The translations under genes and the position numbers were made by a program. Under the pieces are notes generated by a model, which had not been told where the DNA came from, made no database searches, and was given only the letters and a program-made list of their open reading frames with translations. From the IMG/VR virus record IMGVR_UViG_3300034171_000062, positions 64,001 to 128,000 of that record: a stretch of DNA of 64,000 nt; one strand, given 5' to 3'. Of this stretch, positions 1,081-16,770 are shown one piece after another (the first letter of the stretch is position 1; every line of letters starts with the position of its first letter). The stretch is from a virus (lineage: Duplodnaviria > Caudoviricetes).

Positions 1081-1109
1081 CGGAATAAAAGGAGACCCGA
1101 AGGTCTCCT
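1081..1109 (-). terminator. Terminator closing the biosynthetic cluster
   Basis: Minus strand AGGAGACC-TTCG-GGTCTCCT-TTTATTCCG, overlapping the stop codon of the last desaturase. Confidence 0.85.
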
Positions 1110-1920
1110 AGGATTTTGTTCCTTGGCGGAGGAGTTCTTGTAGGTCTTTTGGGCGGTCCGGTTGCGGGCGTCTTCGAATCAGTTGAATGAACCACGCAGC
1201 AAAGTCCACCTCGTACCAACGCTCACTGATGTTCCAGCGACTGGGGTCGGCGTGGTGGTTGTTGTGCCAACCGTCACCAACCGTGACTATGTTCACCAAC
1301 CAGCTGTTGCGGCTGTCGTCGTCCGTCTCGTGGTTGCGGTAGCCCCACGTGTGACCGAAGGTGTTAAAGAACCCTTTGACGTGAAACAGCAACGCGGCAG
1401 GGATCGCATATAAGAACAGCGCTGCCTTCCAGTCAACCGCCCACAGTCCAAACGCATACGCTGCCAATATAGGTACGTAGTACTTATGGGTTAATTGATA
1501 CCCACGCGCGCGCACTTCCCGTTTGGCCACTCTTGGGTCAAGAAAGACCTTGCGTTCCATCCATTCGCCGAACCAAGCTTCTCGCCAACCCTGAACAGTA
1601 GGGCTGTGTGAGTCCCGGTTGGTGTCTGCGTACTTGTGGTGTGTGCGGTGTACCAATAGGTTCATCAGTGGTGAAGCGATGGTGCACAGCATACCACACG
1701 TCACTAGAAGGTACCGCCAAGCGGGAGATGTCTCAAACGAGCGGTGGGCTTCCAGTCGATGATACCCCACAGTTACCCCAAAGAACCCGTACACAAAGTA
1801 CGCTAAAAGCATCCACCCCAACCAGTCCCACGTGCCGTGGTAGATAGCCCAGGCGAGTCCTACGGTTGCGGTGAACTGGAGCGCGATCTGCCAGTACTTC
1901 AGCTGCACGTGTGGCTTCAT
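1108..1920 (-). CDS. Membrane fatty-acid desaturase (delta-9/DesC/Ole1-like), copy 4
   Basis: His boxes HRLEAH, HRTHH and GDGWHNNHH; transmembrane segments; ATGA overlap with the upstream desaturase. Confidence 0.92.
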   Translation of the reverse strand: MKPHVQLKYWQIALQFTATVGLAWAIYHGTWDWLGWMLLAYFVYGFFGVTVGYHRLEAHRSFETSPAWRYLLVTCGMLCTIASPLMNLLVHRTHHKYADTNRDSHSPTVQGWREAWFGEWMERKVFLDPRVAKREVRARGYQLTHKYYVPILAAYAFGLWAVDWKAALFLYAIPAALLFHVKGFFNTFGHTWGYRNHETDDDSRNSWLVNIVTVGDGWHNNHHADPSRWNISERWYEVDFAAWFIQLIRRRPQPDRPKDLQELLRQGTKS

Positions 1921-2678
1921 GATGTCCTCGGTTTACGGATCAGACGAATGATGACGGCGGGCAAATCCACTTCCCACCATTTATCCCAGTTGTTCCAATC
2001 GTTTGGACGTTGATGGTGGTTGTTGTGATACCCTTCTCCGACAAACAGCCACGCCACCAGTAGCGAATTGGTGGAGGCATCGTCGACGTCGTGGTTGCGG
2101 TATCCGCCGGTGTGGCACCAGGCCGAGGCAAACCCAAAGATCACCCACATCAAGGCACTGGGAAGTGCGTACGCAAACAAGAACAGACGCCAATCGATCA
2201 CCAGGAGAATCAACGCGGTGCCGTAGACGATCTTGAAATAGTTGCGGTGAAAGAATTGAACGTCCTTCTCTCGAGCCAAGTCCCGGATGGATCTGGGTGA
2301 GCACTTCTTCAGATTCCACCCAATAGACAACCAGGCTCGGTAGAACCCCAACAACCGAGGGCTGTGTGGGTCGCCGTCTGTGTCTGGATACATGTGATGC
2401 GTACGGTGCACCATGGTCCAGGTAATAGGCGATCCTAATGACATCATCGAACCACAGTACAACAAGAACCAGCGGATGGGTGTGTAGGTCTCATAACTGC
2501 GATGGGCCACGTATCGGTGAAAGCCGACCGAGTTCCCAAAGACGCTGAGGGTCACGTACACCCCCAGGGTCCACCACAACCACTGCCACTGACCGAACGC
2601 AGTCAGATACGCAATGGCAACCCCTCCGAAGAGGGCGTTAAAAAGATTGAGGCAGTCTAATCTGCGCGCTTCAGTCAT
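1917..2678 (-). CDS. Membrane fatty-acid desaturase (delta-9-like), copy 3
   Basis: His boxes HRYVAH, HRTHH and GEGYHNNHH; DPHSP motif; AGGAGA RBS. Confidence 0.92.
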   Translation of the reverse strand: MTEARRLDCLNLFNALFGGVAIAYLTAFGQWQWLWWTLGVYVTLSVFGNSVGFHRYVAHRSYETYTPIRWFLLYCGSMMSLGSPITWTMVHRTHHMYPDTDGDPHSPRLLGFYRAWLSIGWNLKKCSPRSIRDLAREKDVQFFHRNYFKIVYGTALILLVIDWRLFLFAYALPSALMWVIFGFASAWCHTGGYRNHDVDDASTNSLLVAWLFVGEGYHNNHHQRPNDWNNWDKWWEVDLPAVIIRLIRKPRTS

Positions 2679-2687
2679 GATGGTCTC

Positions 2688-3482
2688 CTACGTCTTGAAT
2701 CGTGGCAACGGATGGTGGCGGTGGTGAATGAGTTTGATGACCTGCGCCGGGATGTCCCACTCCCACCAATTTACCCGAGTGTTCCACCGAGACGGGTGCG
2801 CGTGGTGGTTGTTGTGCCAGCCTTCGCCCATGGTGATCAGGTTCGCGATCCAACTGTTGCGACTGGTGTCGCCCTTGAGATCAAACGTCCGATAGCCGTG
2901 TAGGTGAGGGATGACGATGATGCCGCAGGCGCTGTGCAGCGACAGCACCGCCGGAATCGCATAGACAAAAACCACGCCTTGCCACCCAAGAGTAGCAAAC
3001 AGCGCCACGTTCCACACCGCAATGACGTGGAAGTAGTATTTGTGGGTCCATTTGTAGAACGGGTCTTTACGCAACCGCTTGGAGACTTGCCCGGCTTTCT
3101 TAAACCCTGAGGTGTTCCAAGCCCCAAACCACGCGCGTAAGACCCCAATGCGCTGAGGGCTGTGTGGGTCGTGTTCGTCGTCGGTGTGTATGTGGTGGAT
3201 GCGGTGCACGATCGTCCATGCCATGGGTGACCCCACGGTGGTGACAATGCCACAGAACATCAACACCGCTTCAATGGGTCGGTAGGTCTTAAAGGCCCCA
3301 TGGGCTAAGAACCGATGGAACCCAACGTCGATGCCTAAGATCCCTGTGACCCAATACGTCAGCCAGGCGGTCAGCAACCACAGCCACTGTCCTTCCATCA
3401 CCGCCCAGACGCCCACTGGGATCGCCACGGCGTGCGTCAGTATCTGGAGTAGGCGAACCCCCACGTTGTGCGTTAACTTCAC
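2688..3482 (-). CDS. Membrane fatty-acid desaturase (delta-9-like), copy 2
   Basis: His boxes HRFLAH, HRIHH and GEGWHNNHH; DPHSP motif; GTG start. Confidence 0.92.
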   Translation of the reverse strand: MKLTHNVGVRLLQILTHAVAIPVGVWAVMEGQWLWLLTAWLTYWVTGILGIDVGFHRFLAHGAFKTYRPIEAVLMFCGIVTTVGSPMAWTIVHRIHHIHTDDEHDPHSPQRIGVLRAWFGAWNTSGFKKAGQVSKRLRKDPFYKWTHKYYFHVIAVWNVALFATLGWQGVVFVYAIPAVLSLHSACGIIVIPHLHGYRTFDLKGDTSRNSWIANLITMGEGWHNNHHAHPSRWNTRVNWWEWDIPAQVIKLIHHRHHPLPRFKT

Positions 3483-3487
3483 GGTAA

Positions 3488-4246
3488 TTACCCTCTTCGT
3501 TTAATAACCCAAATGAACCAAGCCGTAGGATCGAGTTCCCACCACTTGTGCTGAAAACTGTACCGCCCAGGGTAAGCATGGTGGTTGTTGTGCCAGCCGT
3601 CGCCCACGGTTAAAATATGGGTGACCAGACTGTTCTTAGAATGGTCTTTGGTCTCGTAGTTCCGATAGCCCCATTGATGTGCAAAGATCCCCAACACGTA
3701 GGCGATTAAGAACGCATGCAACGCCGCGGGGAGCACGTACCCCGCCAACACCAAGTCCAACCCACCGAGGACGTAGAGACCCACCACCGCTAACGCGTGT
3801 ATGTAGAAATACCACCGATCCATAAACACCATGATCGGATCTTTCAGCACGTCCTTCATCGCTACCCGACGCCCGTCGTGTTCGAGGTGGTACAGGCAGA
3901 ACAACGCTTTCCAATGCCCCACGACTCGATGGCAATGGGGGTCTTTCTCCGTGTCCGAGTATCGGTGGTGGGCGCGGTGTATCCAGGCCCAACTGATCGG
4001 ACTGCCCGTCAAACACAGCACGCTGAGTATCCCCATTACGAACTCCACCGGGGGGTAGGTCTCATAACTGCGGTGAGAAACCAAGCGGTGCAGATAAGCG
4101 TTGAACCCCACGAGTTGTTGAACGCAGTACACAGCCAATGTTACCCACAGTAAGTCCGGGCGCTCCCAGAGAAGGTAAGCCGTCGCAGGAAAGAACGCCG
4201 CCCAAACGTAGAGTCGGTAGACGTTCATCCGAGGGGTACTATACAT
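3488..4246 (-). CDS. Membrane fatty-acid desaturase (delta-9-like), copy 1
   Basis: His boxes HRLVSH, HRAHH and GDGWHNNHH. Start moved to ATG 4246 (MYSTPR), which overlaps the ketosynthase stop codon. Confidence 0.9.
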   Translation of the reverse strand: MYSTPRMNVYRLYVWAAFFPATAYLLWERPDLLWVTLAVYCVQQLVGFNAYLHRLVSHRSYETYPPVEFVMGILSVLCLTGSPISWAWIHRAHHRYSDTEKDPHCHRVVGHWKALFCLYHLEHDGRRVAMKDVLKDPIMVFMDRWYFYIHALAVVGLYVLGGLDLVLAGYVLPAALHAFLIAYVLGIFAHQWGYRNYETKDHSKNSLVTHILTVGDGWHNNHHAYPGRYSFQHKWWELDPTAWFIWVIKRRG

Positions 4247-5456
4247 AGCGAGAAACTCCCAGTACGCAGTTGAGCCCACCAAAACCAAACGCGTTTTTGA
4301 CAAACGCCGTCATGGGTTTTCGAATGGGGGCCTTAGGTAAGTTGATGGGGGGCAAGTCTGGATCGTATTCCAAGTTGCCGTGTGAAACAATGAAACCTTC
4401 TTGCATCATGTACAGACACAGGATCAATTCAACGATGCCACTGGCTGTGACGCTGTGGCCGAGGAGCCGTTTAAGAGCCACCACAGGCACGTCTTTAGAT
4501 CTCTCGCACTCGGCCAACACTTTGGCTTCTATAGCGTCGCCTTTGAGCGTAGAGGTCGCGTGAGCAGAGATAAAGTCCGGACAGATGCCATACCGATGCC
4601 ATAGGGTGTCTAAGACCGACGATAATGAGGCCAGTCCACCTTCGCCGGTGGGGTTGGTTAGGTCGTGTCCATCGGAGTAATCGGCGTACTCCAACGCGAT
4701 GCCGTAGTTGCGTTGCTGGGTCTCGGGGCGTTTAAAATACGCGGCCCTGGATTCCAAGATCACACACCCGGCGCCTTCGCCGACGGTGAAGCCTGCTCGG
4801 TGCGGTGAGAAGGGGACCGAGGCGTGCTCCAAGTTCGGCCCGCGATACAACGCCCGCATGGCATCGAACCCTCCGACAATTTCTTGTAAGACCTTCTCAA
4901 CGCTGACGCAAATGACAACGTCGGCCCGACCTAACTCAATCAGGTCCATGCCCTGAGTCACCACACGGAGGCCGCTGGCACAGGCGTGTTGTACGGTGTG
5001 GATTGGTCCCTTAATCCCCAGAAGGGTGGCTAGAGGACCCGTCACAGCCGTAGGGAGTGACTTTAAGAGATCGAAGGGCGAACTGCGTTTGTCTGGGTTC
5101 ATTAACGACGCATGAGCGTCCATCCCAGTGGCCCCAAACGCTGAAACCAACGCCACCCTCGGCCCTGTCTCCGAATCCCGACACACGGCCTCAGGATCGT
5201 ATCCGGCGTCTTTTAACGCTTTGCGGATAACGTAGTAAGAGAGGTTCAAGGCGTCGTTAGCAATACTCCGGGGGATGTCTGGCGCTAAGAATTGGGTATT
5301 CTCAATGCAAGGTGCGACGGAGGTGGCCTTGACGTGGGGCCAAAGTTCGATCAACGGTTGTATAGTCACGCGTTCCATCTTCAACGCTGAAACGATCTCT
5401 GAATGGTCGGTCCCATACGGTGAGAGAGAGCCGATGCCGGTAATGATTGCAGACAT
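4239..5456 (-). CDS. fabF: Beta-ketoacyl-ACP synthase (FabF/FabB-type, KAS I/II family)
   Basis: Start MSAIITGIG at 5456 with an ACAGGA RBS. Catalytic Cys in HACASG, His in SAHATST and His in LLGHS. Also has PF..RAGF..GEGAG and C-terminal NAFGFGGLN. Confidence 0.88.
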   Translation of the reverse strand: MSAIITGIGSLSPYGTDHSEIVSALKMERVTIQPLIELWPHVKATSVAPCIENTQFLAPDIPRSIANDALNLSYYVIRKALKDAGYDPEAVCRDSETGPRVALVSAFGATGMDAHASLMNPDKRSSPFDLLKSLPTAVTGPLATLLGIKGPIHTVQHACASGLRVVTQGMDLIELGRADVVICVSVEKVLQEIVGGFDAMRALYRGPNLEHASVPFSPHRAGFTVGEGAGCVILESRAAYFKRPETQQRNYGIALEYADYSDGHDLTNPTGEGGLASLSSVLDTLWHRYGICPDFISAHATSTLKGDAIEAKVLAECERSKDVPVVALKRLLGHSVTASGIVELILCLYMMQEGFIVSHGNLEYDPDLPPINLPKAPIRKPMTAFVKNAFGFGGLNCVLGVSRYV

Positions 5457-5527
5457 GGCGATGTCCTGTGTAAATGTGGGTTTGAATCGATATATGTGAG
5501 ACCAGGGTGCACAATTACGTTGGACCA

Positions 5528-5565
5528 TAAGGCAACCGCAGCCCGATTGGACCACCGTTGCCTTA
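5528..5565. repeat. 9-bp inverted repeat in the only sizeable intergenic gap of the cluster
   Basis: TAAGGCAAC (5528-5536) / GTTGCCTTA (5557-5565); on the minus strand the right arm runs into TTATGG. Confidence 0.55.
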
Positions 5566-5572
5566 AGTAAGA

Positions 5573-6097
5573 TCACTCTAAAAAGTCGATGATCAATAAG
5601 CCCAGTTGGGACCCATTACTGCCCCCCACTAAGGTGAGAAACTTTCCACTCAGTCGAACGATCTCTTTCACGCCCACCGACTCGTCGTTGATCAGCACGT
5701 CGTTCTCCGCCACCGCCAAGTACCCGGTCTGGGTCAACTCGTAGGTCTCCCCCGGTGCCAGCACTATCTTCTCAGCGGTGATGACGCGGTGTTTGGCGTT
5801 GCCGGTGCTCAAACAAAAGCCAACGGTGCCGTCTTCCAGCGCTTCCACTTCGGCCCACCGAGGGTTGGCCTTTGTAGGCACGGGGTCCGAGGCCCACAGA
5901 GTGTACTCGTTAAACGTGTTGCGGGTATGGGTACCGCCTTGCACAATAAACCGAGCTTCTTTAACGGGGATGAAATCGTCGGCCATGGTTTCTTGGTAGT
6001 CGGGTTTTCTACCTAGAATGAACTTCTCACCTTTGTCCACGTAGAACCAGGCGCAGGCTACGCCTTCGTCTTTTAGTCGATGCACTCGAGTTCGCAT
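5573..6097 (-). CDS. Hypothetical beta-rich protein (possibly cupin-like) in the biosynthetic cluster
   Basis: Start MRTRVHRL at 6097 with an AAGGA RBS; co-oriented in the operon; beta-strand-like patterns such as KIVLAPGETYEL. Confidence 0.65.
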   Translation of the reverse strand: MRTRVHRLKDEGVACAWFYVDKGEKFILGRKPDYQETMADDFIPVKEARFIVQGGTHTRNTFNEYTLWASDPVPTKANPRWAEVEALEDGTVGFCLSTGNAKHRVITAEKIVLAPGETYELTQTGYLAVAENDVLINDESVGVKEIVRLSGKFLTLVGGSNGSQLGLLIIDFLE

Positions 6098-6107
6098 GTC
6101 TTCGTCC

Positions 6108-6662
6108 TTACTCTTTAAGGTAAACGTCAATGGGAATGGCCAAACGCAACCCAACGCGATGTTCCTGCACGTAGTGTTGCAAGTACGACGGAAAGATCAG
6201 CAGCCCTCCCCGCTCGGGCTTGTGCTTGTACGTTCGGAAGTGGTTGTTGATCACGTCGTGTGGGTACCCACGAGAAGCCAATCCGCGAGGGTCTACCATA
6301 GACAGGTACCCTTCTTCGCCTTCCAAGTAATACAACGCTGAGACGTGAGCACCGCTGTGGTGGTGGAGTGGACTGCCGTGACCGTCACTGCTGTTGCGTA
6401 CCCAGGCTTGCCAATTGTCGATCAGGGGTTCGTAGTTAAACTGATCCCACGCGTACTGCATCATCAAAGGCACCACGTTCTCCGCAATGAACTTCTTGAG
6501 GTTGGGGTACTGAGGTAAGTGCAGATTGCGCGTTTCATCGATGTGCTGCCCGTCCAACTGCCTCGGTTGCATCATCGCCTCGTACACTAGGGCGTCGTGG
6601 TTCTCGGCAACAACCGTATCGGCGCGAAGGACGACTGGCCAAGGGTGAATGTCGATGGGCAT
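6108..6662 (-). CDS. Putative 2OG-Fe(II) oxygenase (TIGR02466-like), copy 2
   Basis: W..HHHSG..SALYYL..DPRG..GLLIFPSYLQHYV..RLAI motif series; AAGGAG RBS. Confidence 0.8.
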   Translation of the reverse strand: MPIDIHPWPVVLRADTVVAENHDALVYEAMMQPRQLDGQHIDETRNLHLPQYPNLKKFIAENVVPLMMQYAWDQFNYEPLIDNWQAWVRNSSDGHGSPLHHHSGAHVSALYYLEGEEGYLSMVDPRGLASRGYPHDVINNHFRTYKHKPERGGLLIFPSYLQHYVQEHRVGLRLAIPIDVYLKE

Positions 6663-6671
6663 GGAAACTCC

Positions 6672-7238
6672 TTATGTCGGTTCTTGCAGATAGATATCCA
6701 CTGGGATAGACACCCGCATGTCTTTGTCGTGACCGTCGACGTAGTGTTGCAAGTACGACGGAAAGATCACCAAGAGACCTTCTTTGGGGACCTCGCTAAA
6801 CAGATTGAAATGGTCGTTGCGCACCTGCGTTGGATACCCTCGACACGCCGACCCACGAGGATCGACCAAGTTGATCGCGCCACCGGAACACGCCATAGGG
6901 TAATAGATAGCGGACAACACCGACCCACTGTGTTCGTGCAACTTCATTCCTTGGCCGTCGGTGGTGACCCGGACCCAGGCGTTGTACGTGTACTGGACAG
7001 CGTCCAACCCCCAGCAGTCGTTAAGGTAAGCGAGCATCCTCGGAAGGATGTGCTCGTTGAGAAACGCGTTGGTCTGTGGGAAGTCAGTGTCCGTGACCGT
7101 GTTCTCATCCAGATCGAGGTTGTCAAAGTTACGGTTGGTTAAGCGCATCAGAGACTCGGTCACCAGGACCTCATTGTCCACGTCCTCTAACACGCTGCGC
7201 CTAACTACTGTTCGCCAAGGTTCGATGTCTTGAAACAT
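6672..7238 (-). CDS. Putative 2OG-Fe(II) oxygenase (TIGR02466-like), copy 1
   Basis: AWV..HEHSG..SAIYYP..DPRG..GLLVIFPSYLQHYV..RVSI; paralog of the downstream gene; start MFQDIEP at 7238 with a GGAGG RBS. Confidence 0.8.
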   Translation of the reverse strand: MFQDIEPWRTVVRRSVLEDVDNEVLVTESLMRLTNRNFDNLDLDENTVTDTDFPQTNAFLNEHILPRMLAYLNDCWGLDAVQYTYNAWVRVTTDGQGMKLHEHSGSVLSAIYYPMACSGGAINLVDPRGSACRGYPTQVRNDHFNLFSEVPKEGLLVIFPSYLQHYVDGHDKDMRVSIPVDIYLQEPT

Positions 7239-8742: not shown

Positions 8743-8746
8743 GTGC

Positions 8747-9802: not shown

Positions 9803-10743
9803 TGTGTCTCAGCCCATTGCAATAAGTGAATGAACCCGTTGCACGACTGGTCGGTACTCTGCACGTCTCTCAGGTGTTCTGACAGACACCGTCCAAAATA
9901 CGTACAGCCGCTGCAACCTGATGTCAGTACCCTCGTCTTCTCAGTGTCACACCACGCAAAATACGCGTCGATGCTGTCCATCTCCAAGAAGAACTCGTTG
10001 TCCGCCTCATCGAACTCCAACACGCCAAACTGGCCGCTGGGGGTGATGTACACATGGTCGTCGGAAAACGCGTTGCGCTGGCCAGACAGACTCTCTTGAA
10101 TCTGCTGAGCGTTGACGAATTCAAACTTCATCTCAGACTGACGTTCGTACAATTGCTTAATGAACGCCTCGTACTCCGGGTATCCTACCGGCAACTGATT
10201 GGCCTGATTCGGACTGTAGGGCTTGATCTCCACCGAACTGAGATTGGCCAGAAGATTCAATGTCCCAACAATCTCATCGGGGGTCTTTGCTAGAACCTCT
10301 GGGGTGGCCAAGATCAGAATCGAGAACTCCCGCTCCATCTTTAACATCTGTTGAAAGACGTGTTCGTGTCTCTCGCGTGCATCGAAGTCGTAGCTGACTG
10401 ACAAGTACCAGTCCGGGTCGTGCATCACAGCGTTGTTCACAGACAGATTGGTGATGATGTTCAGATCGTCGATCCCGCGGGCGTGGAGACCTTCTTTTAA
10501 TTCGTTGATGTACTCCGAAGGCAACAGCAACGGTTCGCCTCCGTAGAGGTCCACCATACCCACGGGTCTATGTGCCAGCACCTCATCCACACGTTCAAAC
10601 AACCGTGTCAGCGACAGACGTTTCTTGTCTGCCAGTTGCACTGGAGTCAAGTAACAGAAGTTGCATCGGAAGTTGCAGTAGTACGAAGGATTTACCGACA
10701 AATTGATCGGTTGATCAGTCGACGTTAACGAGTGTAAGTTCAT
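9799..10743 (-). CDS. Radical SAM protein with a partial SPASM/twitch domain, rSAM-4
   Basis: NPSYYCNFRCNFCY, YGGEP, ITNL; C-terminal CSGCTYFGRC...C; likely start ATG 10743. Confidence 0.88.
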   Translation of the reverse strand: MNLHSLTSTDQPINLSVNPSYYCNFRCNFCYLTPVQLADKKRLSLTRLFERVDEVLAHRPVGMVDLYGGEPLLLPSEYINELKEGLHARGIDDLNIITNLSVNNAVMHDPDWYLSVSYDFDARERHEHVFQQMLKMEREFSILILATPEVLAKTPDEIVGTLNLLANLSSVEIKPYSPNQANQLPVGYPEYEAFIKQLYERQSEMKFEFVNAQQIQESLSGQRNAFSDDHVYITPSGQFGVLEFDEADNEFFLEMDSIDAYFAWCDTEKTRVLTSGCSGCTYFGRCLSEHLRDVQSTDQSCNGFIHLLQWAETQ

Positions 10744-11812
10744 CGATACTCTCATCCACATAGGGGGTTGGGATCAAGATCCCGGTTAATCCGTTGGCTT
10801 CGATGAGGTCGGGGGCCAGTGCTTTCATCTTGCGACAGTGTTCTTCGACGCGGCCGGTCTTCTTGGCGTCTCGGATGCTCTTCTTACAGCCGTTGCAAAT
10901 GGAGAACATGGGACAGAAGTAACAGTCCTGCTTTAAACTGTCCAACTCAAACACCTGAAGTGGGAGTTGCTTCTTACCCGTCATTTCTTCTTCGAAGTTG
11001 ATCGGGTATTCCCCATCGTCACCAAAGGAACCGCAGGAGTAATAGTCCCCACTCGGCTGCATGGCCCGGATGCCAGAGTCGCACGTGCGCTTCAAAGGAC
11101 ACGTGGTAGCACCACCCGCTAGGGCAACGGTCATTTGTTGTGTGCCGTGTTCCCACTCAGTCAGTCCTCGGCGATGGAGGTCCAGATAGACTTCGTACAT
11201 GTCCGCTACCAAGAAGTGCTGACCTTCATTGCCCATGGTGCCTTTCTTGGTTTGAACAACCGGCCCGGAGGCGTTGGCGTAGTTCAGCTTACACGACACA
11301 CCCATGGCCTTGGCCAACTCTACGGTTTTCACCGCTTCATGGCGATTACTCTCATCGACGACGGCGATGAACGTGGGGCGGTATCCTACGTGCTCTAACA
11401 TGGTGTCTGAGACGGCCCAGAACTCGTCTTCGGTGAACGGGGTATAATCCCCCTTCAATCGTTTCTCACCGTACTGGAAGCTCGTAGCGACGCCCACACG
11501 AGGGTGATTGAACAGAGGCGCCCACTTCCCCGGTTTCTTGTAGAACGGCCAGAGATTGGAGGTCAGTGAGATGCTGGTGTTTTCCATCTTCAACTCGTCC
11601 AACATCTCAATCAAGGCCCAGTAATACGCCGGTGGCATCATTAACGGGTCGCCGCCGTTGACGATGATGGTGTTGGTTTCCGGGAAACGTTCCAAGAACC
11701 GACGTATATCGACCAACTCCAGAATGTCGTTGCTGTCCTCGGCGATGTTTGTGCTGGAACAGAACGTGCATTTAAAGTTGCATTTCTCCGTGGGTTTGAT
11801 TATGAGATCAAT
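10715..11812 (-). CDS. Radical SAM/SPASM protein, rSAM-3 (ATT start codon)
   Basis: The ORF track begins at TTG 11716, but the frame extends to ATT 11812: IDLIIKPTEKCNFKCTFCSST, containing CxxxCxxC. AGGAGG lies 8 nt upstream and an in-frame TAG lies 5 codons upstream. Also has NGGDP and SPASM Cys CPLKRTC..YSCG..CYFCPMFSICNGC..C. Confidence 0.88.
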   Translation of the reverse strand: MDLIIKPTEKCNFKCTFCSSTNIAEDSNDILELVDIRRFLERFPETNTIIVNGGDPLMMPPAYYWALIEMLDELKMENTSISLTSNLWPFYKKPGKWAPLFNHPRVGVATSFQYGEKRLKGDYTPFTEDEFWAVSDTMLEHVGYRPTFIAVVDESNRHEAVKTVELAKAMGVSCKLNYANASGPVVQTKKGTMGNEGQHFLVADMYEVYLDLHRRGLTEWEHGTQQMTVALAGGATTCPLKRTCDSGIRAMQPSGDYYSCGSFGDDGEYPINFEEEMTGKKQLPLQVFELDSLKQDCYFCPMFSICNGCKKSIRDAKKTGRVEEHCRKMKALAPDLIEANGLTGILIPTPYVDESIDELTLVNVD

Positions 11813-11841
11813 CTTACTACCCTCCTAGCCCGGAGGCTCGT

Positions 11842-12900
11842 TTAAACGTTCAGTGTGGGTATGCGTTGAGCGGCACCATCGCTGACGGCGTCGATGTATC
11901 GATGGGTGGCTTTGTACACACACTCATCCATTTCGTCTCGGTGGCGATACGCGTGTTGCATGAAGCACCCCAACTCACAGCGTTGAAAGTACTCGCACGT
12001 CAAGCACCCATATTTCTCCATGAAGTGTTCTTCAATGCCCCGATTGCTCTGCGGATCGATGGGCACTTCGTAGATCTCTTCGGCAATCTTTGGGTCGATG
12101 AGGTTACCGCACCCACAGGTAGTGCCGTCTTCCAAAATCAACTTACTGGATCGACACGACAAACTACTGGACTTGCGTTCCATCCACCCAGCGATCGGTT
12201 CGCAGTTTGGGTAGTTATCGATCAAAAACGTAAACAACTTGAACAGATCCAAATCGCCTGGGGCGGCTGGAGTAACTTCATCGGGCATCAGGTAATCGAA
12301 ATAGATCTTAAACCCAGCGCCATAGACCCATTTAAAGAACGCGTCCTGATCTCTTAGGAAGTGATCGATGTTCTGCTTGGTTGCGACTAGACAGACGCTT
12401 CTAATGATTCTGGGTCCGAAGTATTCTAAGTTGGCTTTAAACGCTTCAAACTGCTTGCGGTTAAAGCGACCTTTGGGATCGTAGGACGTCGTGAACGTCG
12501 TGGGAATGCCCGCCGTTGCGCACTCTTCAATGAACAGACTCAATTGAGTTCGATCGTCCGTCACCAGGTTGGTCACCCAGTTAAGCGTGACTCGGATGTT
12601 ATTCAAGCGTGCGTGGGCTACGATCGCTTGTGCCAGTTTTACGTACGCCGCGCGCATCGTGGGAGTAAAGACCTCCGGCGCGAAGACCTCCCCACCCATG
12701 ATGTTAAACACCACAACCGACTTGGTCTCCTTGTCCAGAAGCTTCACCACCGCGGGCAATTTCCCCAGTATATCGTCCACGCCTACTAAGGAGTCGTGGT
12801 CCTGCCAGCAGAAACTGCACGACAGGTTACAGTACTCGAACAGGTGTATCGTGTATTCCTGTTCGGGGTCTCGCTTGCTGTTCAATAAGAGATCGGTCAT
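11842..12900 (-). CDS. Radical SAM/SPASM protein, rSAM-2
   Basis: HLFEYCNLSCSFCW, MGGE, VTNL; C-terminal C..CGC..CLTCEYFQRCELGC..C. Confidence 0.88.
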   Translation of the reverse strand: MTDLLLNSKRDPEQEYTIHLFEYCNLSCSFCWQDHDSLVGVDDILGKLPAVVKLLDKETKSVVVFNIMGGEVFAPEVFTPTMRAAYVKLAQAIVAHARLNNIRVTLNWVTNLVTDDRTQLSLFIEECATAGIPTTFTTSYDPKGRFNRKQFEAFKANLEYFGPRIIRSVCLVATKQNIDHFLRDQDAFFKWVYGAGFKIYFDYLMPDEVTPAAPGDLDLFKLFTFLIDNYPNCEPIAGWMERKSSSLSCRSSKLILEDGTTCGCGNLIDPKIAEEIYEVPIDPQSNRGIEEHFMEKYGCLTCEYFQRCELGCFMQHAYRHRDEMDECVYKATHRYIDAVSDGAAQRIPTLNV

Positions 12901-13910
12901 AGTTCGAACCCTTTACACGCCTCCGACTTCAATCCCACCGCCCAATGGATGACGTGGACTTTTAACTTGTCCATGTCGGCCCAATCTAGGTAGTCGGTGT
13001 GTTCGTTGCTGGCACGTATCATGGAAATGAAAAGATCGGTTGCTTCGCCATCCTCAATCGGGTCGACGCTGCTGATGATCCTTAGTTTGGCCCGTTCGGC
13101 TTCGATTTGCAGTTTCTCGATCTGAGGTTCCTGATCCAGATACAAGGCAAAGTCCCGACACAGCGCGTCTTGAGTGGGTTGTTTCATCCGCGTGATCCGA
13201 AGCGTCAGATTGGGGTCGGTCAAGAAATTGAACCCAGGTACCTTACGCAGTAAATTCACCTCGCCGACGTGCTGGCTGGCGTCGTATCCGTACTTCTTCT
13301 GCATGTGGGCTGAGAAGAACAAAGACACCAGATTACGCTGAATTTCATGCACGTGATTGATCGTCGACCGTAACGCAAACATACGTACGTCCTCGGCGAT
13401 GCTTACGCGCTTGTTGCCTGAAAGATAGTCCAACAACTTATACTCCAGAGAGAGCTTCTCTGGAATGTCGCGCACCACCGTCCGAAGGTCGGCGTCGCCT
13501 TCGAGGTTGGCGTAATCTGAAACCATCTCTTTAACGACTTCCCCTTTAGGTAACGCCACGCCCTGAGTATTCAATGCCACCAGTTCCAGTCCCAATAGGG
13601 TTTGTACTTGACTCAGAGTGGCGTTGGGGAAAATGGCTTTCAGCCACTTACTGATCAACTTACCGTAAGACTCAAGACTGGTGTAGATAACGATCTTCTT
13701 GTCCCCTACGCCTTTATACTGCGTGAGTAACTTAGTGAAACCGGTGGCCACAAACTCATCTTCGTCAGCGGTCAGTCCCATTAGGATAGGACCAGCAAGT
13801 TCTCGCTCGTCGTAGTTCTCAGCCATAACCTTGGAGGCCAGGTAGAACGCATGTTTTTCCGATTTGATGCTATCCACGGCTAGGTAGATGCGATTAAACA
13901 AATGATACAT
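12897..13910 (-). CDS. Hypothetical protein of the radical SAM cluster
   Basis: 337-aa ORF with TAATG overlap upstream and ATGA overlap downstream; no recognised motif. Confidence 0.8.
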   Translation of the reverse strand: MYHLFNRIYLAVDSIKSEKHAFYLASKVMAENYDERELAGPILMGLTADEDEFVATGFTKLLTQYKGVGDKKIVIYTSLESYGKLISKWLKAIFPNATLSQVQTLLGLELVALNTQGVALPKGEVVKEMVSDYANLEGDADLRTVVRDIPEKLSLEYKLLDYLSGNKRVSIAEDVRMFALRSTINHVHEIQRNLVSLFFSAHMQKKYGYDASQHVGEVNLLRKVPGFNFLTDPNLTLRITRMKQPTQDALCRDFALYLDQEPQIEKLQIEAERAKLRIISSVDPIEDGEATDLFISMIRASNEHTDYLDWADMDKLKVHVIHWAVGLKSEACKGFEL

Positions 13911-14635
13911 TACGTTTCCTCGATGGCTATTTCGTCGTTCTTTAAAGCGACGAGCGCGTCTTCGAACTCTTCGTTCGTAAGCATCTCATCGTCCACCATA
14001 GACACCAGAAGAACGTGTAAGTCGTTCTCTGGAATGGCCCAAAACGAAAACAGGTTCTTACTTTTGAACATGTAGTCGTTAAAGTACTTGGTGTAATTCC
14101 GCACCAGGCCGTCGTTTACCACTTCCATGGCGATAGGAAACAACGGATTGTCAAACAGATTGACAAAGTTGATGCCTTTGGTGTCTGCCGTGTCGTCGAC
14201 TGGGTAGTTGTTGACCAGCGCTTGCAGGGCGTCGTCTTGAATGGTTGTCATCATGTACAAACTCATGGAGTCGATCAACGACAGCCACTTGCCCAATATA
14301 CCGAGTCGGTCTTTAATCCATTTGTCGGTCACCCAATTGCACACACCCAATCCCTTGATGTGGAGCATTACTTCCAACACCATGGTTTCCAACTTCTTAC
14401 ATTTCAGTAAGGTGGGTAGGTTCAAATACGCGTCCAACACCTCCAAGGCGTCCTCACCCAAAAAGGTGACTTCAACCGGTAGGTCTAGGTTACTTAAGTA
14501 GATCAGGGCTTGCAGTGGGTTTACTCGATCCTTCGAGGCCGACAGGTCGATCTCCAAAGAGACCTCTGGATCGCCGATGATCTCCCGAAGGGTGGCGACG
14601 GGAATGGGGACGGTGGTTTGGACTACAGTACTCAT
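13910..14635 (-). CDS. Hypothetical protein of the radical SAM cluster
   Basis: Start MSTVVQTT at 14635 overlaps the stop of the CHxx-tail gene (TAATG); acidic, helical. Confidence 0.8.
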   Translation of the reverse strand: MSTVVQTTVPIPVATLREIIGDPEVSLEIDLSASKDRVNPLQALIYLSNLDLPVEVTFLGEDALEVLDAYLNLPTLLKCKKLETMVLEVMLHIKGLGVCNWVTDKWIKDRLGILGKWLSLIDSMSLYMMTTIQDDALQALVNNYPVDDTADTKGINFVNLFDNPLFPIAMEVVNDGLVRNYTKYFNDYMFKSKNLFSFWAIPENDLHVLLVSMVDDEMLTNEEFEDALVALKNDEIAIEET

Positions 14636-15192
14636 TAACGACGTCCTCTTGAGTTGTGACAGCTGTCGTGACATTGGGCGTGACAGATGTCGCGCGCTAA
14701 CGTGTGGGTGGTGTTCACTCGGGCGTAGTTATAATACGCATTGCGTAACCGTTCAATGAACCCGTCCGCGCCCGCCCGATCGATGGCGTAGCCGTCGTCC
14801 ACCGTGCCCGCAGCTTGGGCTGGGATGTTGATTTCCTGGGCGGCGGTTAGATTGGCGATGGTCGTGGTGTCGTATATCACTCTATACCCATTGCCTGACG
14901 ACCACCCAGTCCGGTTCTGACGGATATAAATGCGTGTCCGGCGGATGCGGGAGTAGTTCTTCATATACGCATGCAGGGTAGCGCGCATGGTGTCGGCATC
15001 CAATACCCCACCCGGACCTTCAATCGCCGCGTAGGGCGGCAATGAGTAGTATCCGCTGGTAGTGCCCCCAAACCATCCGTACAGGGAATTTGCTGGGTAG
15101 TTGTTGGTGCCCCAGGATATCCCACTGCGGGACAGGGCACTTACCCTTTCACTGAATTTTAAGTAGACGTCTGCTGTCTTGATCTCGGCCAT
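14635..15192 (-). CDS. Candidate substrate/precursor protein with C-terminal (CHxx)3-RGRR tail; virion-protein-like body
   Basis: 185 aa ending RDICHAQCHDSCHNSRGRR; Gly/Thr/Tyr-rich body; AGGA RBS; embedded among rSAM genes. Confidence 0.7.
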   Translation of the reverse strand: MAEIKTADVYLKFSERVSALSRSGISWGTNNYPANSLYGWFGGTTSGYYSLPPYAAIEGPGGVLDADTMRATLHAYMKNYSRIRRTRIYIRQNRTGWSSGNGYRVIYDTTTIANLTAAQEINIPAQAAGTVDDGYAIDRAGADGFIERLRNAYYNYARVNTTHTLARDICHAQCHDSCHNSRGRR

Positions 15193-15238
15193 GTCAAGGT
15201 TCCTATAAGTTTAAATGTCCATACGATCTAACGATCCT

Positions 15239-16288
15239 TTATCCCACGTTAAGTACCGGAATGATATCCGTCTCTCCGTATTTAAAGTGAGATAGGAGCA
15301 ATCTCAATCCAGGACACGAGTTGCCCTGCCAAATCAGTCGATGGCAGTCCCCGCCACAGACATCGAATAAGTGACAACTTAAGCAGTTGGGGTTAACGTC
15401 CAGTTCGTCGACAATGCGTTCCGTACGACCGTCGCTTAAAAGGAACTCTTCCAAATTGTCGTCCAAGGTCCCGTTCGATTCCACCTTGGCGCCGTTGGCA
15501 CACCCGCCGATGTTTCCTGCGCCGTCTACCGTAAACAAGTTCTGTTCGCACGTGCGGCAGTTGGTGTCTACGTTATACTGGTTGGTTTCGAACTTAGTCT
15601 CTATGGTTTCCAACGTGCCGATGGTGAAGTTGGGTTTCAGACGTTTGTACGCGAAGTACAAATCGTAGTAAAACTTATCCACCGCCCGATTGTCTGGGAA
15701 CATATGGGGGTTGTCCACCGCGTTGCCGTCGGAAGTTAGACGTTCGATGGCCACGTCCGTCACCCCAAACGTCCCCCACAACTTGATCAACTCATCGACG
15801 TTGTACGTAAGAGTCTGATCGGTGACGGTCACAAACATCTTAATGGTGATGTTCATGTCTCGCAGAGTCTTCAAGTTCCCAAGCCACTGTTGATACATCC
15901 GCTCGGTCTTAAATCGATACACTGGGTCCCAACTCGTACCGACGTGACTCCCCATCACTTTGATGAAAAAGTTCGTGTGTTCATCGGTCAACTTATATAT
16001 GAGATTGGTGGTGGCGCCGATTGAGATGTCGTCCCAGCGTTCTTCGCCCACCAGACGTTTGACCGTTAAGGCAAAGTCCCAATGTTCGTGAATAGGACGT
16101 AAGAAAGGCTCGCCCCCATGTAACTCCAAATGTAAATGTTCGTCGTTGAACTGCTGAGCCAACTCACTGACCCACCCAGCAACCTTCTGAGTATCCCAAG
16201 CAGTCTTCGCCCCCTTCGACCCTGAGGTAAAGCAGTGATCGCAATCCAGATTACAAGTGTCCGTTGGTTTGATGTACACTACCTTCAT
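15239..16288 (-). CDS. Radical SAM/SPASM protein, rSAM-1
   Basis: YIKPTDTCNLDCDHCF, HGGEP, TTNL; SPASM CRTC..GGC..CLSCHLFDVCGGDC..C; ATGA overlap with the JmjC gene. Confidence 0.92.
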   Translation of the reverse strand: MKVVYIKPTDTCNLDCDHCFTSGSKGAKTAWDTQKVAGWVSELAQQFNDEHLHLELHGGEPFLRPIHEHWDFALTVKRLVGEERWDDISIGATTNLIYKLTDEHTNFFIKVMGSHVGTSWDPVYRFKTERMYQQWLGNLKTLRDMNITIKMFVTVTDQTLTYNVDELIKLWGTFGVTDVAIERLTSDGNAVDNPHMFPDNRAVDKFYYDLYFAYKRLKPNFTIGTLETIETKFETNQYNVDTNCRTCEQNLFTVDGAGNIGGCANGAKVESNGTLDDNLEEFLLSDGRTERIVDELDVNPNCLSCHLFDVCGGDCHRLIWQGNSCPGLRLLLSHFKYGETDIIPVLNVG

Positions 16289-16770
16289 AACTGCCACCGG
16301 TCTTCTAAGAATTGTTCGTTACCAAAACTGATCATGATCGATTCGAATTCGTTTGTAGCACGATGCATAACGCCCGCCGGAATCCACACCGTTGGGTTGT
16401 ATATCGGATCGAGGGTGATGACCTCCCCACCAATTTCAATCGTCTTTTTACCGTAAACGCATTTCAGTAGAATGTCGTACGGGTCTTCATGCAACCTAAA
16501 GCTAGGCGCGCCAGCCACCGCCCAAAACAGATGTGCGTTGCACGGACCGTCGTGACCGGTTTCCTTCTTTATCCGAACCGTCTCCAACTGCACCTCTCGG
16601 AACACCCGTTCCAACTCTTCCACCTTGATGGTCTTTAAGGAACCGTCGAACGCCTCAGCCACTGAGCTTATCGGGCGAATGTGGTGGTCGGTGTCGATGC
16701 GAGAGACCAAACTTTCCTCGTACAGATCCGGCAGCGTCAGCAGCATTTCAATGCGGTCTTTAAAATCCAT
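16285..16770 (-). CDS. Cupin/JmjC-like oxygenase (resembling the ROX/YcfD cupin_4 family)
   Basis: SFRLHEDPYD (HxD), GKK and WIPAGVMHRA (distal His); start MDFKDR at 16770 with a GAGGAG RBS. Confidence 0.75.
   Translation of the reverse strand: MDFKDRIEMLLTLPDLYEESLVSRIDTDHHIRPISSVAEAFDGSLKTIKVEELERVFREVQLETVRIKKETGHDGPCNAHLFWAVAGAPSFRLHEDPYDILLKCVYGKKTIEIGGEVITLDPIYNPTVWIPAGVMHRATNEFESIMISFGNEQFLEDRWQL

Follow-up and report, generated by a model that had tools for sequence, protein, structure and literature searches.

A 19-gene operon between tail-fibre genes of an uncultured jumbo phage, proposed to combine a radical-SAM maturation cassette and a lipid module

The window, i.e., the whole 64,000-nucleotide stretch of DNA that was analysed, belongs to a 170-kb virus record (62% complete) from a large, uncultured, T4-like jumbo myovirus. 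Between tail-fibre genes it carries 19 tightly coupled minus-strand genes (1108-16794, 15.7 kb), which are best explained as two independent modules lying side by side: a protein-maturation cassette (module 1, 6108-16794) and a lipid module (module 2, 1108-6154). We rate this joint explanation, which includes the roles proposed for both modules, as somewhat better than an even chance. The function of module 1 is most likely the radical-SAM (rSAM) maturation of a virion or fibre-associated protein, and module 2 is most likely a lipid-remodelling module. The features are as follows:

16873-18516, minus strand: 547-aa tail-fibre protein, upstream of the cassette (phrog_2163, 8e-159)
16831-16854, minus strand: terminator-like hairpin (10-bp stem, TTCG loop, T run) between the fibre and cupin genes
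16285-16794, minus strand: small JmjC-like cupin, putative Fe(II)/2OG oxygenase, module 1 (H-x-D...H and Lys; phrog_8014)
15239-16288, minus strand: rSAM1, radical SAM/SPASM, module 1 (SPASM TIGR04085, 28.4 bits, cut-off 27; phrog_1802, 1e-53)
14635-15192, minus strand: CH-tail protein, 185 aa, module 1 (alpha/beta domain at residues 1-170 and C-terminal (CHxS)3-RGRR)
13910-14635, minus strand: unk254, module 1 (phrog_20767)
12897-13910, minus strand: unk337, accessory, module 1 (present in 19/118 loci)
11842-12900, minus strand: rSAM2, module 1 (radical SAM, SPASM-like C-terminal Cys motif)
10715-11812, minus strand: rSAM3, module 1 (radical SAM, ATT start following GGAGG)
9799-10761, minus strand: rSAM4, module 1 (radical SAM, CxxxCxxC)
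8747-9802, minus strand: rSAM5, divergent radical SAM paralogue, module 1 (CxxxCxxC and C-terminal CxxCx5C...C motif)
7654-8742, minus strand: rSAM6, module 1 (paralogue of rSAM5)
7205-7657, minus strand: unk156, conserved unknown, module 1 (phrog_20737)
6672-7256, minus strand: 2OG-Fe(II) oxygenase, module 1 (PF13759)
6108-6662, minus strand: 2OG-Fe(II) oxygenase, module 1 (PF13759)
5573-6154, minus strand: unk193, module 2 (homologous to a 175-aa gene within the ketosynthase/desaturase block of loci L183 and L184)
4239-5456, minus strand: FabF/FabB-like beta-ketoacyl synthase, module 2 (Cys-His-His triad)
3488-4246, minus strand: desaturase 1, module 2 (Delta9-type His boxes)
2688-3482, minus strand: desaturase 2, module 2 (FA_desaturase, Delta9-type)
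1917-2678, minus strand: desaturase 3, module 2 (FA_desaturase, Delta9-type)
1108-1920, minus strand: desaturase 4, module 2 (FA_desaturase, Delta9-type)
1090-1109, minus strand: terminator-like hairpin (8-bp stem, TTCG loop), overlapping the desaturase 4 stop codon
1-663, minus strand: tail-fibre gene, N-terminal part (phrog_19602), extending beyond the window

The gene content given in the first-pass annotation was reproduced, with 19/19 co-oriented minus-strand ORFs present in the same order, and its enzyme inventory is correct: six CxxxCxxC radical-SAM proteins, a JmjC-like cupin, two 2OG-Fe(II) oxygenases, a ketosynthase and four desaturases. Pfam thresholds were passed by four FA_desaturase proteins, by the ketoacyl-synt N and C domains and by two 2OG-FeII_Oxy_5 proteins, and the CxxxCxxC motif was found in six ORFs of the operon, although rSAM3 includes it only with an ATT start at 11812, which GGAGG precedes. 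The JmjC_2 match of the cupin is sub-threshold (16.8 bits, Pfam cut-off 22); among 40 homologues, conservation of its H102-x-D104...H144 and K117 is 90% or more. The close coupling that had been described was also observed, most junctions being -4, -1 or at most 11 nt, with exceptions before the 185-aa gene (46 nt) and before rSAM3 (29 nt); the ketosynthase junction is -4 with a GTG start and approximately 116 nt with an ATG start. The two hairpins said to bracket the genes (16854-16831 and 1109-1090, both TTCG-looped) are the two strongest terminator-like hairpins of the minus strand, whereas terminator-like sites in the region overall are not above expectation (19, compared to 15.8 after shuffling). 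Tail-fibre genes flank both sides, as proposed, at 16873-18516 (phrog_2163/13857) and 1-663 (phrog_19602), and the latter gene ends, outside the window, in a Peptidase_S74 chaperone domain. A chimera with host DNA, which had been named as a possible objection, is unlikely, since the window shows uniform GC and each module was found again on independent phage contigs.

Module 1 is a widespread, conserved functional unit centred on the CH-tail protein. Four cultured jumbo phages (pPa_SNUABM_DT01, Atu_ph07, RSL2 and Phosso), found by homology and not by motif, carry the cassette in the order cupin, rSAM1, tail protein, unk254, rSAM2-4 and unk156. The DNA scan for the tail motif yielded at least 120 IMG/VR loci; among the matches listed, 118 of the 120 loci examined have the motif at the end of an ORF, and rSAM homologues are present at most of these 118. 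In most loci rSAM1 lies directly upstream of the CH-tail gene, while unk254, the structure model of which is confident with no recognised fold, was found in 84/118 loci and, in the majority of type A loci, is the next gene after that for the CH-tail protein. Type B loci have two tail genes heading a run of rSAM genes. Searches of bacterial genomes gave about 36 genuine cassettes, about 25 of them in Bdellovibrionota, where some are located on contigs of 1.3-2.8 Mb beside housekeeping genes and one adjoins an S74 fibre-like protein. Module genes are already annotated in cultured phage genomes. Our literature search found no functional studies of module 1 or module 2, and the earlier statement that no pathway of this kind has been characterised in a phage holds within the searched literature.

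The 185-aa CH-tail protein is a candidate substrate of the enzymes and a candidate virion component. Its C-terminus reads CHAQCHDSCHNSRGRR, the (CHxS)3-RGRR tail being encoded at 14638-14685. The tail, CHxxCHxSCHxxRxRR, is invariant in 5/5 proteins (the one described here and those of the four cultured phages), the bodies of which are just 18-33% identical. The DNA scan itself fixed the C, H and R of the motif, so their invariance there follows from the search; conservation is nevertheless seen at scan-free positions, Ser occurring in 149, 136 and 146 and Gly in 150 of the 171 tails. A profile search, which is not fully independent since the profile included the tail, matched 845 representative clusters; the motif is terminal in 135 of the best 150, and in 85 of those 135 the tail holds the sole Cys residues of the protein. 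Neither Pfam nor NCBIfam has a model for the family, and no fold was recognised. AlphaFold2 gave a pLDDT of 89 for the full protein and 51-56 in the tail, as would be expected of a carrier domain bearing a flexible core.

The cassette usually sits directly after a tail-fibre gene. Among 47 immediately upstream neighbours, 34 match the tail-fibre family phrog_19602 and 39 match phrog_22593; 11 have a Peptidase_G2 chaperone domain and six have collagen repeats. The virion proteome of Atu_ph07 contains gp170 (31.89 kDa, 8 unique peptides, 35% coverage; Table S5, PMC6102473), recovered from gel slices 1-9 with its peak abundance in slice 1, at the top (PMC6102473). This protein is the Atu_ph07 tail protein, with a computed mass of 31.89 kDa and neighbours that match gp176 and gp177 exactly. 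The products gp168, 169, 171 and 172, which correspond to rSAM2, unk254, rSAM1 and the cupin, are absent from the proteome list (PMC6102473). It should be noted that the particles were PEG-purified and that Table S5 includes obvious non-structural proteins, among them ribonucleotide reductase and terminase (PMC6102473). The gel loading buffer was described without reductant (PMC6102473); therefore, the high-mass gp170 could be a disulfide-linked or SDS-stable oligomer instead of an enzyme-made cross-link. The RSL2 homologue, ORF068, has just a hypothetical annotation, while the neighbouring ORF057 and ORF065 are marked as virion structural. Given the phrog_19602 neighbours and the presence of gp170 in the virion proteome, a modified virion or fibre component, one of the products proposed from the start, is the best supported one.

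The enzymes rSAM1-4 are related to one another (hhalign probability 97-99.5%), and rSAM3 is the best-conserved enzyme of the cassette, with 50-60% identity to phage and Bdellovibrionota homologues. By sequence comparison, rSAM1 and rSAM3 have their best NCBIfam matches among rSAM/SPASM maturases that modify peptides or proteins (PapB, DynA, AmcB, YhhB, HxsB, anSME and HxsC), with scores well short of each family's cut-off. PapB, CteB (ranthipeptide/SCIFF) and the triceptide synthases have in common with module 1 the CxxxCxxC core and the SPASM auxiliary-cluster domain, and ranthipeptide, SCIFF and triceptide substrates have closely spaced Cys, or aromatic-x-x motifs, near the C-terminus, akin to the tail; however, module 1 reaches no family model of these side-chain cross-linking maturases, the best being PapB with 49 bits against a cut-off of 340. 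The enzyme anSME is likewise a minimal rSAM/SPASM enzyme modifying Cys or Ser on a folded protein, and the closest solved structure to rSAM3 by sequence is anSME 4k36 (E=3e-4); rSAM1 and rSAM3 align to it weakly, at full length (36-41 bits, cut-off 349), and the CH-tail is without the sulfatase motif C/S-x-P/A-x-R. An rSAM/SPASM enzyme can cross-link a protein subunit that is retained in a complex, as QhpD does on the QhpC subunit. Triceptide cyclophane synthases include the His-C2 cross-linkers HtkB and HaaB (PMC11499958).

The maturation of the tail has to be weighed against a different, less probable reading, in which the Cys/His tail holds a metal or an iron-sulfur cluster instead of being a substrate; the protein would then serve as an oligomeric part of the virion stabilised by metal, or as a redox or scaffold helper, with the radical-SAM enzymes acting elsewhere (on the fibre, another protein or a small molecule). 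Spaced at a period of 4, the three Cys and three His would align on one helix face, and the AlphaFold2 model has a helix at residues 172-181. Phage fibres use His-metal sites (T4 gp37 and gp12), and the high-mass species came from the gel with the reductant-free loading buffer. Four to six rSAM families also seem excessive for 16 residues, and for this reason some of them may act on another substrate in any case. Conversely, the tail gene adjoins the maturase-like rSAM1 in most loci, the two tail genes placed before the rSAM run in type B loci are precursor-like, the nearest relatives of the enzymes modify peptide or protein side chains, and metal binding accounts neither for the Ser conserved in every repeat nor for the RGRR at the end. 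Overall, we consider the metal site possible, although unlikely.

Among known systems, the one closest to module 1 is the bacterial HXS system (HxsA/B/C/D), although module 1 does not pass as a member of it. In HXS, two rSAMs and a small protein mature a His-x-Ser effector that blocks DNA entry (Li et al., Nat Commun 2026, PMC13128918), the modification being mapped to one repeat (PMC13128918). In both, multiple radical-SAM enzymes and a small helper would act on a protein with short, basic-rich His-x-Ser repeats, not on a short peptide. A phage-run counterpart, blocking the DNA entry of competing phages (superinfection exclusion) or countering host defence inside the cell or envelope, could be suggested by this precedent, by the weak matches of rSAM1 to HxsB and rSAM3 to HxsC, and by the basic tail with three H-x-S triplets. 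This is improbable: every score is far below the family cut-offs (roughly 10-fold), the HxsA and HxsD models give no match, a peptidoglycan-binding domain is lacking, inspection by eye shows no signal peptide, and PADLOC families gave generic rSAM-core matches only. Furthermore, the repeat of module 1 is C-H-x-S at the extreme C-terminus, its enzymes comprise 4-6 rSAM families and three oxygenases, and it is found in phages and predatory bacteria, following fibre genes, with the Atu_ph07 homologue in a virion preparation, whereas the HXS product is periplasmic.

Module 2 is much rarer than module 1. Its ketosynthase belongs to a phage-borne clade of about 15 members that are 43-56% identical, compared to at most 33% for bacterial FabF, and each desaturase has one-to-one orthologues in L183 and L184; a fifth desaturase lies before the window. 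The catalytic residues are kept, i.e., the Cys-His-His triad of the ketosynthase and all three His boxes in the desaturases. No genuine cultured-phage record with a related ketosynthase was found, tblastn giving host-like FabF/FabB of 25-30% identity in doubtful records, and the 170-kb record (62% complete) contains no ACP. The nearest parallel is that of the cyanophage Delta9 lipid desaturases, which desaturate C16 chains (Roitman et al., ISME J 2017, PMC5776448) and were proposed to change host membrane fluidity (PMC5776448). These are phage-borne Delta9-type membrane enzymes with His boxes of the same type; in contrast, module 2 has 4-5 distinct desaturase orthologues in tandem, adds a dedicated ketosynthase and a conserved unknown protein, and is located in the fibre/endolysin region of a jumbo phage that is not cyanophage-like. 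Desaturases carried singly by phages are already known as auxiliary genes (PMC5776448).

The first-pass annotation had combined all 19 genes into one natural-product-style assembly line and had named independent assortment of the modules as an observation against it. The rSAM/oxygenase unit is real; the single pathway is unsupported because modules 1 and 2 do assort independently. The ketosynthase/desaturase block is missing beside the cassette in 4/4 cultured phages and in 8/9 metagenomic loci reaching at least 2.5 kb beyond the cassette; in L183 and L184, where it comes after a fibre gene, the 10 kb upstream contain no radical-SAM gene. An integrated line, with all enzymes acting on one product such as a cross-linked, hydroxylated and acylated fibre protein, could draw on the tight coupling and bracketing hairpins of this window and on the adjacency of both blocks on two more contigs (L020/L178 and L182); given this distribution, and with no acyltransferase or ACP found to join lipid to protein, we give it little credence. 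Least probable of all is a released RiPP, in which the tail would be cleaved from the protein and leave the cell as a small bioactive peptide: the cluster-like layout, with a precursor-like gene beside rSAM/SPASM maturases, and the Cys-rich C-terminal core recall SCIFF and ranthipeptides, while the conserved cassette showed neither protease nor exporter, the "leader" of about 165 residues is itself conserved and is modelled with confidence as a folded domain, and the whole protein was detected in virions.

We propose that the folded domain of the 185-aa protein carries a flexible, near-invariant tail (C-H-x-S three times, then R-G-R-R) that would be modified post-translationally by rSAM1-4, aided by the rSAM5/6 pair, the JmjC-like cupin and the two 2OG oxygenases. 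The most likely chemistry would be cross-links at Cys, His or Ser side chains, and the matured protein would be incorporated into the virion, probably at a tail fibre or close to one. Module 2 most likely alters the acyl chains of host lipids late in infection, presumably with host ACP and reductants. Because the same cassette occurs in predatory Bdellovibrionota, its product plausibly acts at the surface of the prey or host cell.

The block of interest comprises 19 ORFs on the minus strand, running from 16794 down to 1108 in the order proposed by the first-pass annotation, and most of its intergenic junctions are -4, -1 or at most 11 nt. Of the enzyme inventory listed there, Pfam recovered the four desaturases (FA_desaturase), the beta-ketoacyl synthase with both of its domains and the two oxygenases (2OG-FeII_Oxy_5) above threshold. 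The hairpins said to bracket the block are the two strongest terminator-like ones on the minus strand, with TTCG loops, at 16854-16831 and 1109-1090, and tail-fibre genes do lie on both sides; the one at 1-663 falls into phrog_19602, the PHROG of fibres found upstream of related cassettes. We describe the block as two modules:

6108-16794, minus strand: module 1, the cassette (JmjC-like cupin, radical-SAM proteins rSAM1-6, CH-tail protein, unk254, unk337, unk156, two 2OG-Fe(II) oxygenases)
14635-15192, minus strand: the 185-aa CH-tail protein of module 1
1108-6154, minus strand: module 2, the lipid block (unk193, ketosynthase, desaturases 1-4)

The source record is 170.5 kb long, with a CheckV completeness estimate of 62%, and the remaining window genes encode T4-like and jumbo-myovirus functions (baseplate, SbcC-like nuclease, RNase H, virion proteins). 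The right half of the window also contains several large ORFs, among them one of 2019 aa at 56280-62339 (minus strand). The first 20 kb of the window had no megablast match in cultured phages. A chimera with host DNA is made unlikely by the GC content, which is even across the window, and by recurrence on independent contigs (the phage cassette loci and L182-L184, other loci that carry the lipid block).

The tail proteins of the window and of four cultured phages, all found by homology, have bodies that are only 18-33% identical, and their C-terminus is invariant in all five: C-H-x-x-C-H-x-S-C-H-x-x-R-x-R-R, followed by the stop codon. A degenerate DNA pattern for this tail matched at least 120 IMG/VR loci, with far fewer than one chance match expected (an estimate assuming uniform base composition). 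Among the matches listed, the motif closes an ORF in 118 of the 120 loci fetched, and homologues of the same radical-SAM families are present in most of these loci. Conservation at C, H and R is built into the DNA scan, but the free positions are conserved as well in 171 tails (Ser at -13 in 149, Ser at -9 in 136, Ser at -5 in 146 and Gly at -3 in 150), which makes (CHxS)3-RGRR the real motif. When 1.84 billion representative proteins were searched with a profile that included the tail, 845 clusters matched at E<=1e-3. The exact motif ends 135 of the best 150 of these 845, the rest having two or four repeats or a one-residue insertion, and in 85 of the 135 the tail cysteines are the only cysteines of the protein. 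The family is labelled hypothetical in all sources, and no member listed as motif-ending has a Pfam domain. Individual family proteins (P0240, P0246, P0185, P0260) show variant tails in which the CHxS unit occurs four times or twice, or in which a Gly-rich extension replaces RGRR; in P0161 (453 aa), a Pfam Gly_rich_2 domain is fused ahead of the CH-tail domain.

The AlphaFold2 model of the tail protein, built with a 56-sequence alignment, is a confident alpha/beta domain (pLDDT 89 overall) with a tail at pLDDT 51-56. Foldseek found no match to this fold in PDB at E<=0.001, and no solved structure is similar; the best VIA-align wide Z scores of the tail protein and unk254 models (4.2 and 4.9) are at noise level. 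A BFVD search with the tail-protein model matched only uncharacterised members of the same family. The fold also occurs in three 504-660 aa proteins of 'Myoviridae sp. ctijX18'.

The SAM-cleaving [4Fe-4S] motif CxxxCxxC is present in all six rSAM ORFs, and PF04055 scored above its cut-off for three of the six proteins in the genome search. In rSAM3 this motif lies upstream of any ATG, GTG or TTG; the start required to include it is an ATT at 11812, placed 8 nt after GGAGG, with an in-frame TAG five codons upstream of the ATT (11810-11830, minus strand). The SPASM model TIGR04085 (cut-off 27) accepts rSAM1 with 28.4 bits, while rSAM3 stays below it with 21.5 bits and a visible SPASM cysteine pattern. 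The C-terminal cysteines follow CxxCx5Cx3C in rSAM2, and only CxxCx5C...C, with a twitch-like look, in rSAM4-6. By hhalign, rSAM1-4 are mutually related (probability 97-99.5%), whereas rSAM5 and rSAM6 form a separate pair with a distant link to rSAM4. The best NCBIfam matches of rSAM1 and rSAM3 are weak (PapB, DynA, AmcB, YhhB, HxsB, GrrM, FxsB, anSME and HxsC, all about tenfold under the family cut-offs); the maturases of these families act by cross-linking or oxidising side chains of peptides or proteins, and the solved structure closest to rSAM3 by sequence is anSME. Because the weak best matches and the closest structure are all peptide or protein maturases, far under their cut-offs, the rSAM1/rSAM3-type enzymes are, as judged by sequence, new families within the peptide- and protein-modifying radical-SAM/SPASM group. 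The cupin stays below the cut-off of the JmjC family PF08007 (16.8 bits, cut-off 22), and its H-x-D...H triad (H102, D104, H144) and a lysine, K117, at the place of a 2OG-binding Lys are at least 90% conserved across 40 homologues. The two oxygenases exceed the cut-off of 27 for PF13759 (2OG-FeII_Oxy_5) with 53.3 and 56.8 bits.

Two cassette layouts were found among the loci, type A being that of the window. Type B begins with two tandem tail proteins of ~130 aa, behind which stand as many as seven rSAM5/6-like genes; in some cases type A enzymes are encoded nearby. Loci of this second type include L010, L035, L044, L063, L075 and L095-L097, and they often stand directly behind a fibre gene of 1000-2100 aa. 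The gene after the tail gene is unk254 in most type A loci, and its model is confident (pLDDT 90). Recognisable relatives of unk254 were found neither by Foldseek against PDB at E<=0.001 nor by VIA-align wide, and its PDB sequence search was empty, as was that of unk193; atlas look-ups gave no usable lead for unk254 and unk156. The possibility that unk254, unk337 and unk156 are degenerate radical-SAM paralogues was ruled out by hhalign. In phage RSL2 (L008), a dihydrofolate reductase gene is annotated at 18036-18572, inside the cassette between two rSAM genes. Since the tail and the enzymes recur together in this way, we regard the cassette as very probably a unit that includes the tail protein.

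The cassette is linked to fibres in other viral loci as well. Of the 47 genes immediately upstream of it, 34 match phrog_19602 and 39 match phrog_22593; eleven contain the Peptidase_G2 autoproteolytic chaperone domain and six contain collagen repeats. This linkage was counted by PHROG and Pfam scans, a fibre-repeat regular expression that matched 2 of 160 upstream genes being too narrow.

Evidence on the virion itself comes from Agrobacterium phage Atu_ph07, in which gp170 (31.89 kDa) was detected with eight unique peptides and 35% coverage (Table S5 in PMC6102473). For AUZ94952, the tail protein of Atu_ph07, a mass of 31.89 kDa was computed, and when genes are counted from it, AUZ94958 (66.07 kDa) and AUZ94959 (21.66 kDa) exactly match gp176 and gp177; because its own mass and these two masses agree, gp170 is the tail protein. 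The neighbouring gp168, gp169, gp171 and gp172 (rSAM2, unk254, rSAM1 and the cupin) are absent from Table S5 (PMC6102473). The tail protein was present in gel slices 1-9 and was most abundant in slice 1, the peak position of 90-140 kDa proteins (PMC6102473); thus, a 32-kDa protein runs far above its own mass. It should be noted that the particles were purified by PEG only, that the same table includes some clearly non-structural proteins, and that the loading buffer is described without a reductant (PMC6102473), so a disulfide-linked or SDS-stable oligomer would give the same picture as a cross-link made by enzymes. The RSL2 homologue carries only a hypothetical annotation, and two of its neighbours are marked as virion structural.

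These observations suggest the following mechanism. The folded domain would present the flexible (CHxS)3-RGRR tail to the radical-SAM/SPASM enzymes, which may modify its Cys, His or Ser side chains, with thioether links, His cyclophane-type links and oxidation as chemical precedents; the cupin and the 2OG oxygenases would add hydroxylations, and the matured protein would be incorporated into the virion at or near a fibre. We consider it probable that the tail is the substrate of the enzymes, and the location of the tail protein in the virion or fibre to be an evenly balanced proposition; the mechanism as a whole is the account that we favour by a small degree. An unlikely alternative is that this Cys- and His-rich tail merely binds metal, with the enzymes acting elsewhere.

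The first-pass annotation had combined all 19 genes in a single biosynthetic assembly line. Homologues of rSAM1 at 34-42% identity were found by protein searches in cultured phages of Pseudomonas (pPa_SNUABM_DT01), Ralstonia (RSL2, RSF1, FLC4, RsoM3USA), Burkholderia (FLC6, FLC8, SURPRISE13), Agrobacterium (Atu_ph07) and Sinorhizobium (Phosso). Annotated neighbourhoods and BLAST show a common order in these phages: fibre, cupin, rSAM1, small protein, unk254, sometimes unk337, rSAM2, rSAM3, rSAM4 and unk156. Identity to the window is 55-60% for rSAM3 and ~48% for rSAM4, and rSAM5/6-like genes and 2OG oxygenases are also found in DT01 and RSL2. The same comparison revealed no ketosynthase, desaturase or unk193 in the cultured-phage cassettes. 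Conversely, in L183 and L184 an S74-domain fibre gene and three small genes precede the lipid block, which consists of a ketosynthase, four desaturases, a 175-aa gene and one further desaturase and is followed by a muramidase gene. The 10 kb upstream of the block contain no radical-SAM gene; the statement that these loci have no cassette covers 10 kb on each side of the block. The five desaturases of the window phage, one of which lies just before the window, pair one-to-one with orthologues in L183/L184, and unk193 is homologous to the 175-aa gene. In L182 the cassette is followed by two 2OG genes, a ketosynthase, one desaturase and then fibres. Nine metagenomic cassette loci extend at least 2.5 kb past the cassette; only one of them, a close relative of the window phage, carries the lipid block. 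The synteny in cultured phages, L182-L184, the unk193 homology and the downstream loci place the module boundary at 6108-6154. The modules therefore assort independently in homologue neighbourhoods, the result that the first-pass annotation itself had named as refuting a combined cluster, and one integrated pathway with the lipid genes is improbable.

An 85-aa ORF (755-1012, minus strand; phrog_2738 and phrog_402) separates the last desaturase of the window from the fibre gene that comes next; it is kept at the same place in L182 and in L178, another locus with both blocks adjacent (73% identity in L178). Downstream of this fibre gene, which starts inside the window, in L177 (G000 48001-64000), the interval 8931-16000 (minus strand) contains small genes without assigned function and the following two features:

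L177 10639-11394, minus strand: fifth desaturase (NCBIfam DesA family, 8e-8)
L177 8931-9731, minus strand: protein with PG_binding_1 and Muramidase domains

The order from desaturase to muramidase is the same in L183 and L184. Pfam did not confirm the glycosyltransferase labels given to genes that precede the window.

The ketosynthase has both ketoacyl-synt domains (PF00109, 92 bits; PF02801, 59 bits) and keeps the Cys-His-His triad, with ACASG, HATST and GHS motifs visible, and it is not a FabF equivalog (180 bits against a cut-off of 494). Its clade consists of ~15 metagenomic proteins that are 43-56% identical, followed by bacterial FabF at no more than 33%; no genuine counterpart was found in cultured phages. 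The four window desaturases score 59-64 bits against PF00487 (cut-off 29.7) and have three to four hydrophobic stretches; all five desaturases have the Delta9-type boxes HRxxxH, HRxHH and HNNHH together with hydrophobic segments. No ACP was found in the 170.5-kb record, which is 62% complete. A single Delta9 desaturase is a known cyanophage auxiliary gene that alters host lipids (PMC5776448); here, in contrast, five distinct orthologues are combined with a ketosynthase and a conserved gene, in a recurrent block that has fibre genes on one side and a muramidase gene on the other. For module 2 we lean towards a late role, in which acyl chains of the host would be remodelled with ACP and reductants that the host supplies; a weaker alternative is that it makes a lipid destined for a virion-associated glycolipid.

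Among known systems, the bacterial HXS defence is closest to module 1, and an HXS-like exclusion or counter-defence effector might be considered. However, the window cassette was negative in every HXS membership test: HxsB (TIGR03978) scored 38.7 bits against a cut-off of 370 and HxsC (TIGR03977) 26.7 against 267.9, the 185-aa protein, unk254 and unk156 had no NCBIfam or Pfam match at all, and hence none to the effector HxsA (a peptidoglycan-binding domain with His-x-Ser repeats) or to the small protein HxsD, and H-x-S triplets occur in the 185-aa protein only inside C-H-x-S units; such an effector is therefore hardly to be expected. PADLOC reported only generic similarity to viperins in the radical-SAM core. 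Ranthipeptide/SCIFF systems (PapB, CteB) differ in their short Cys-rich precursor, compared to the folded 185-aa protein here, and the PapB model scored 49.1 bits (cut-off 340). Scores against the anSME model TIGR03942, whose cut-off is 349, were 41.3 and 35.7 bits, and the anSME target motif C/S-x-P/A-x-R is absent from the window tail. A released RiPP is very improbable, given that the conserved cassette has no protease or exporter and that the whole Atu_ph07 homologue was detected in virions (PMC6102473).

The tail DNA pattern also had 47 matches in one-genome-per-species bacterial and archaeal assemblies. About 36 of these are genuine cassettes, ~25 of them in Bdellovibrionota, where the distribution is patchy (10 of 301 sampled genomes). 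Three bacterial cassettes lie on contigs of 1.3-2.8 Mb beside housekeeping genes (DinG-like helicase, serine dehydratase), and one adjoins a fibre-like protein with an S74 chaperone domain. On the Bacteriovoracaceae chromosomes L179 and L181 the cassette stands beside two matrixin-like metalloprotease genes, and in L179 also beside a >1700-aa protein with RCC1 repeats and a Big_2 domain. The bacterial rSAM3 is 51-56% identical to the phage enzyme. Because phages and bacterial predators share the system, in both cases near fibre-like genes, we infer that these data point to a role at the prey cell surface. Tentatively, large phages and predatory Bdellovibrionota may share a covalent tail modification, made by the radical-SAM enzymes and iron oxygenases, that finishes a cell-attack structure, either as a cross-link into the fibre or baseplate or as a new metal-binding or redox-active prosthetic group at prey contact; in the window phage, the neighbouring ketosynthase and five-desaturase module would additionally make unusual unsaturated acyl chains. 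A fibre or baseplate cross-link would explain the 32-kDa Atu_ph07 homologue in the top gel slice.

Radical-SAM protein maturation and phage lipid auxiliary genes are the known kinds of biology involved. In the cultured-phage papers the cassette genes appear only as accessory or unknown, and searches for phage RiPP and radical-SAM work turned up nothing on the module 1 cassette, with no functional study in the searchable papers. Maturation by radical-SAM enzymes has been known from secreted peptides, from a few enzymes and, since 2026, from one bacterial anti-phage effector; to our knowledge, none has been described for virus particles. The window's own contribution is the cassette beside the lipid module, together with evidence that both are separable. 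With module 2, the lipid auxiliary genes of phages would no longer be limited to a single desaturase but include a multi-enzyme acyl-chain pathway. Hundreds of sequence clusters make up the module 1 family, which is found in many large phages, within the region for host recognition, and in bacterial predators, and the cultured carriers DT01, Atu_ph07, RSL2 and FLC6 make it directly testable. If the tail is enzymatically cross-linked or made into a cofactor, this would represent a new virion-assembly principle and a source of new enzyme chemistry.
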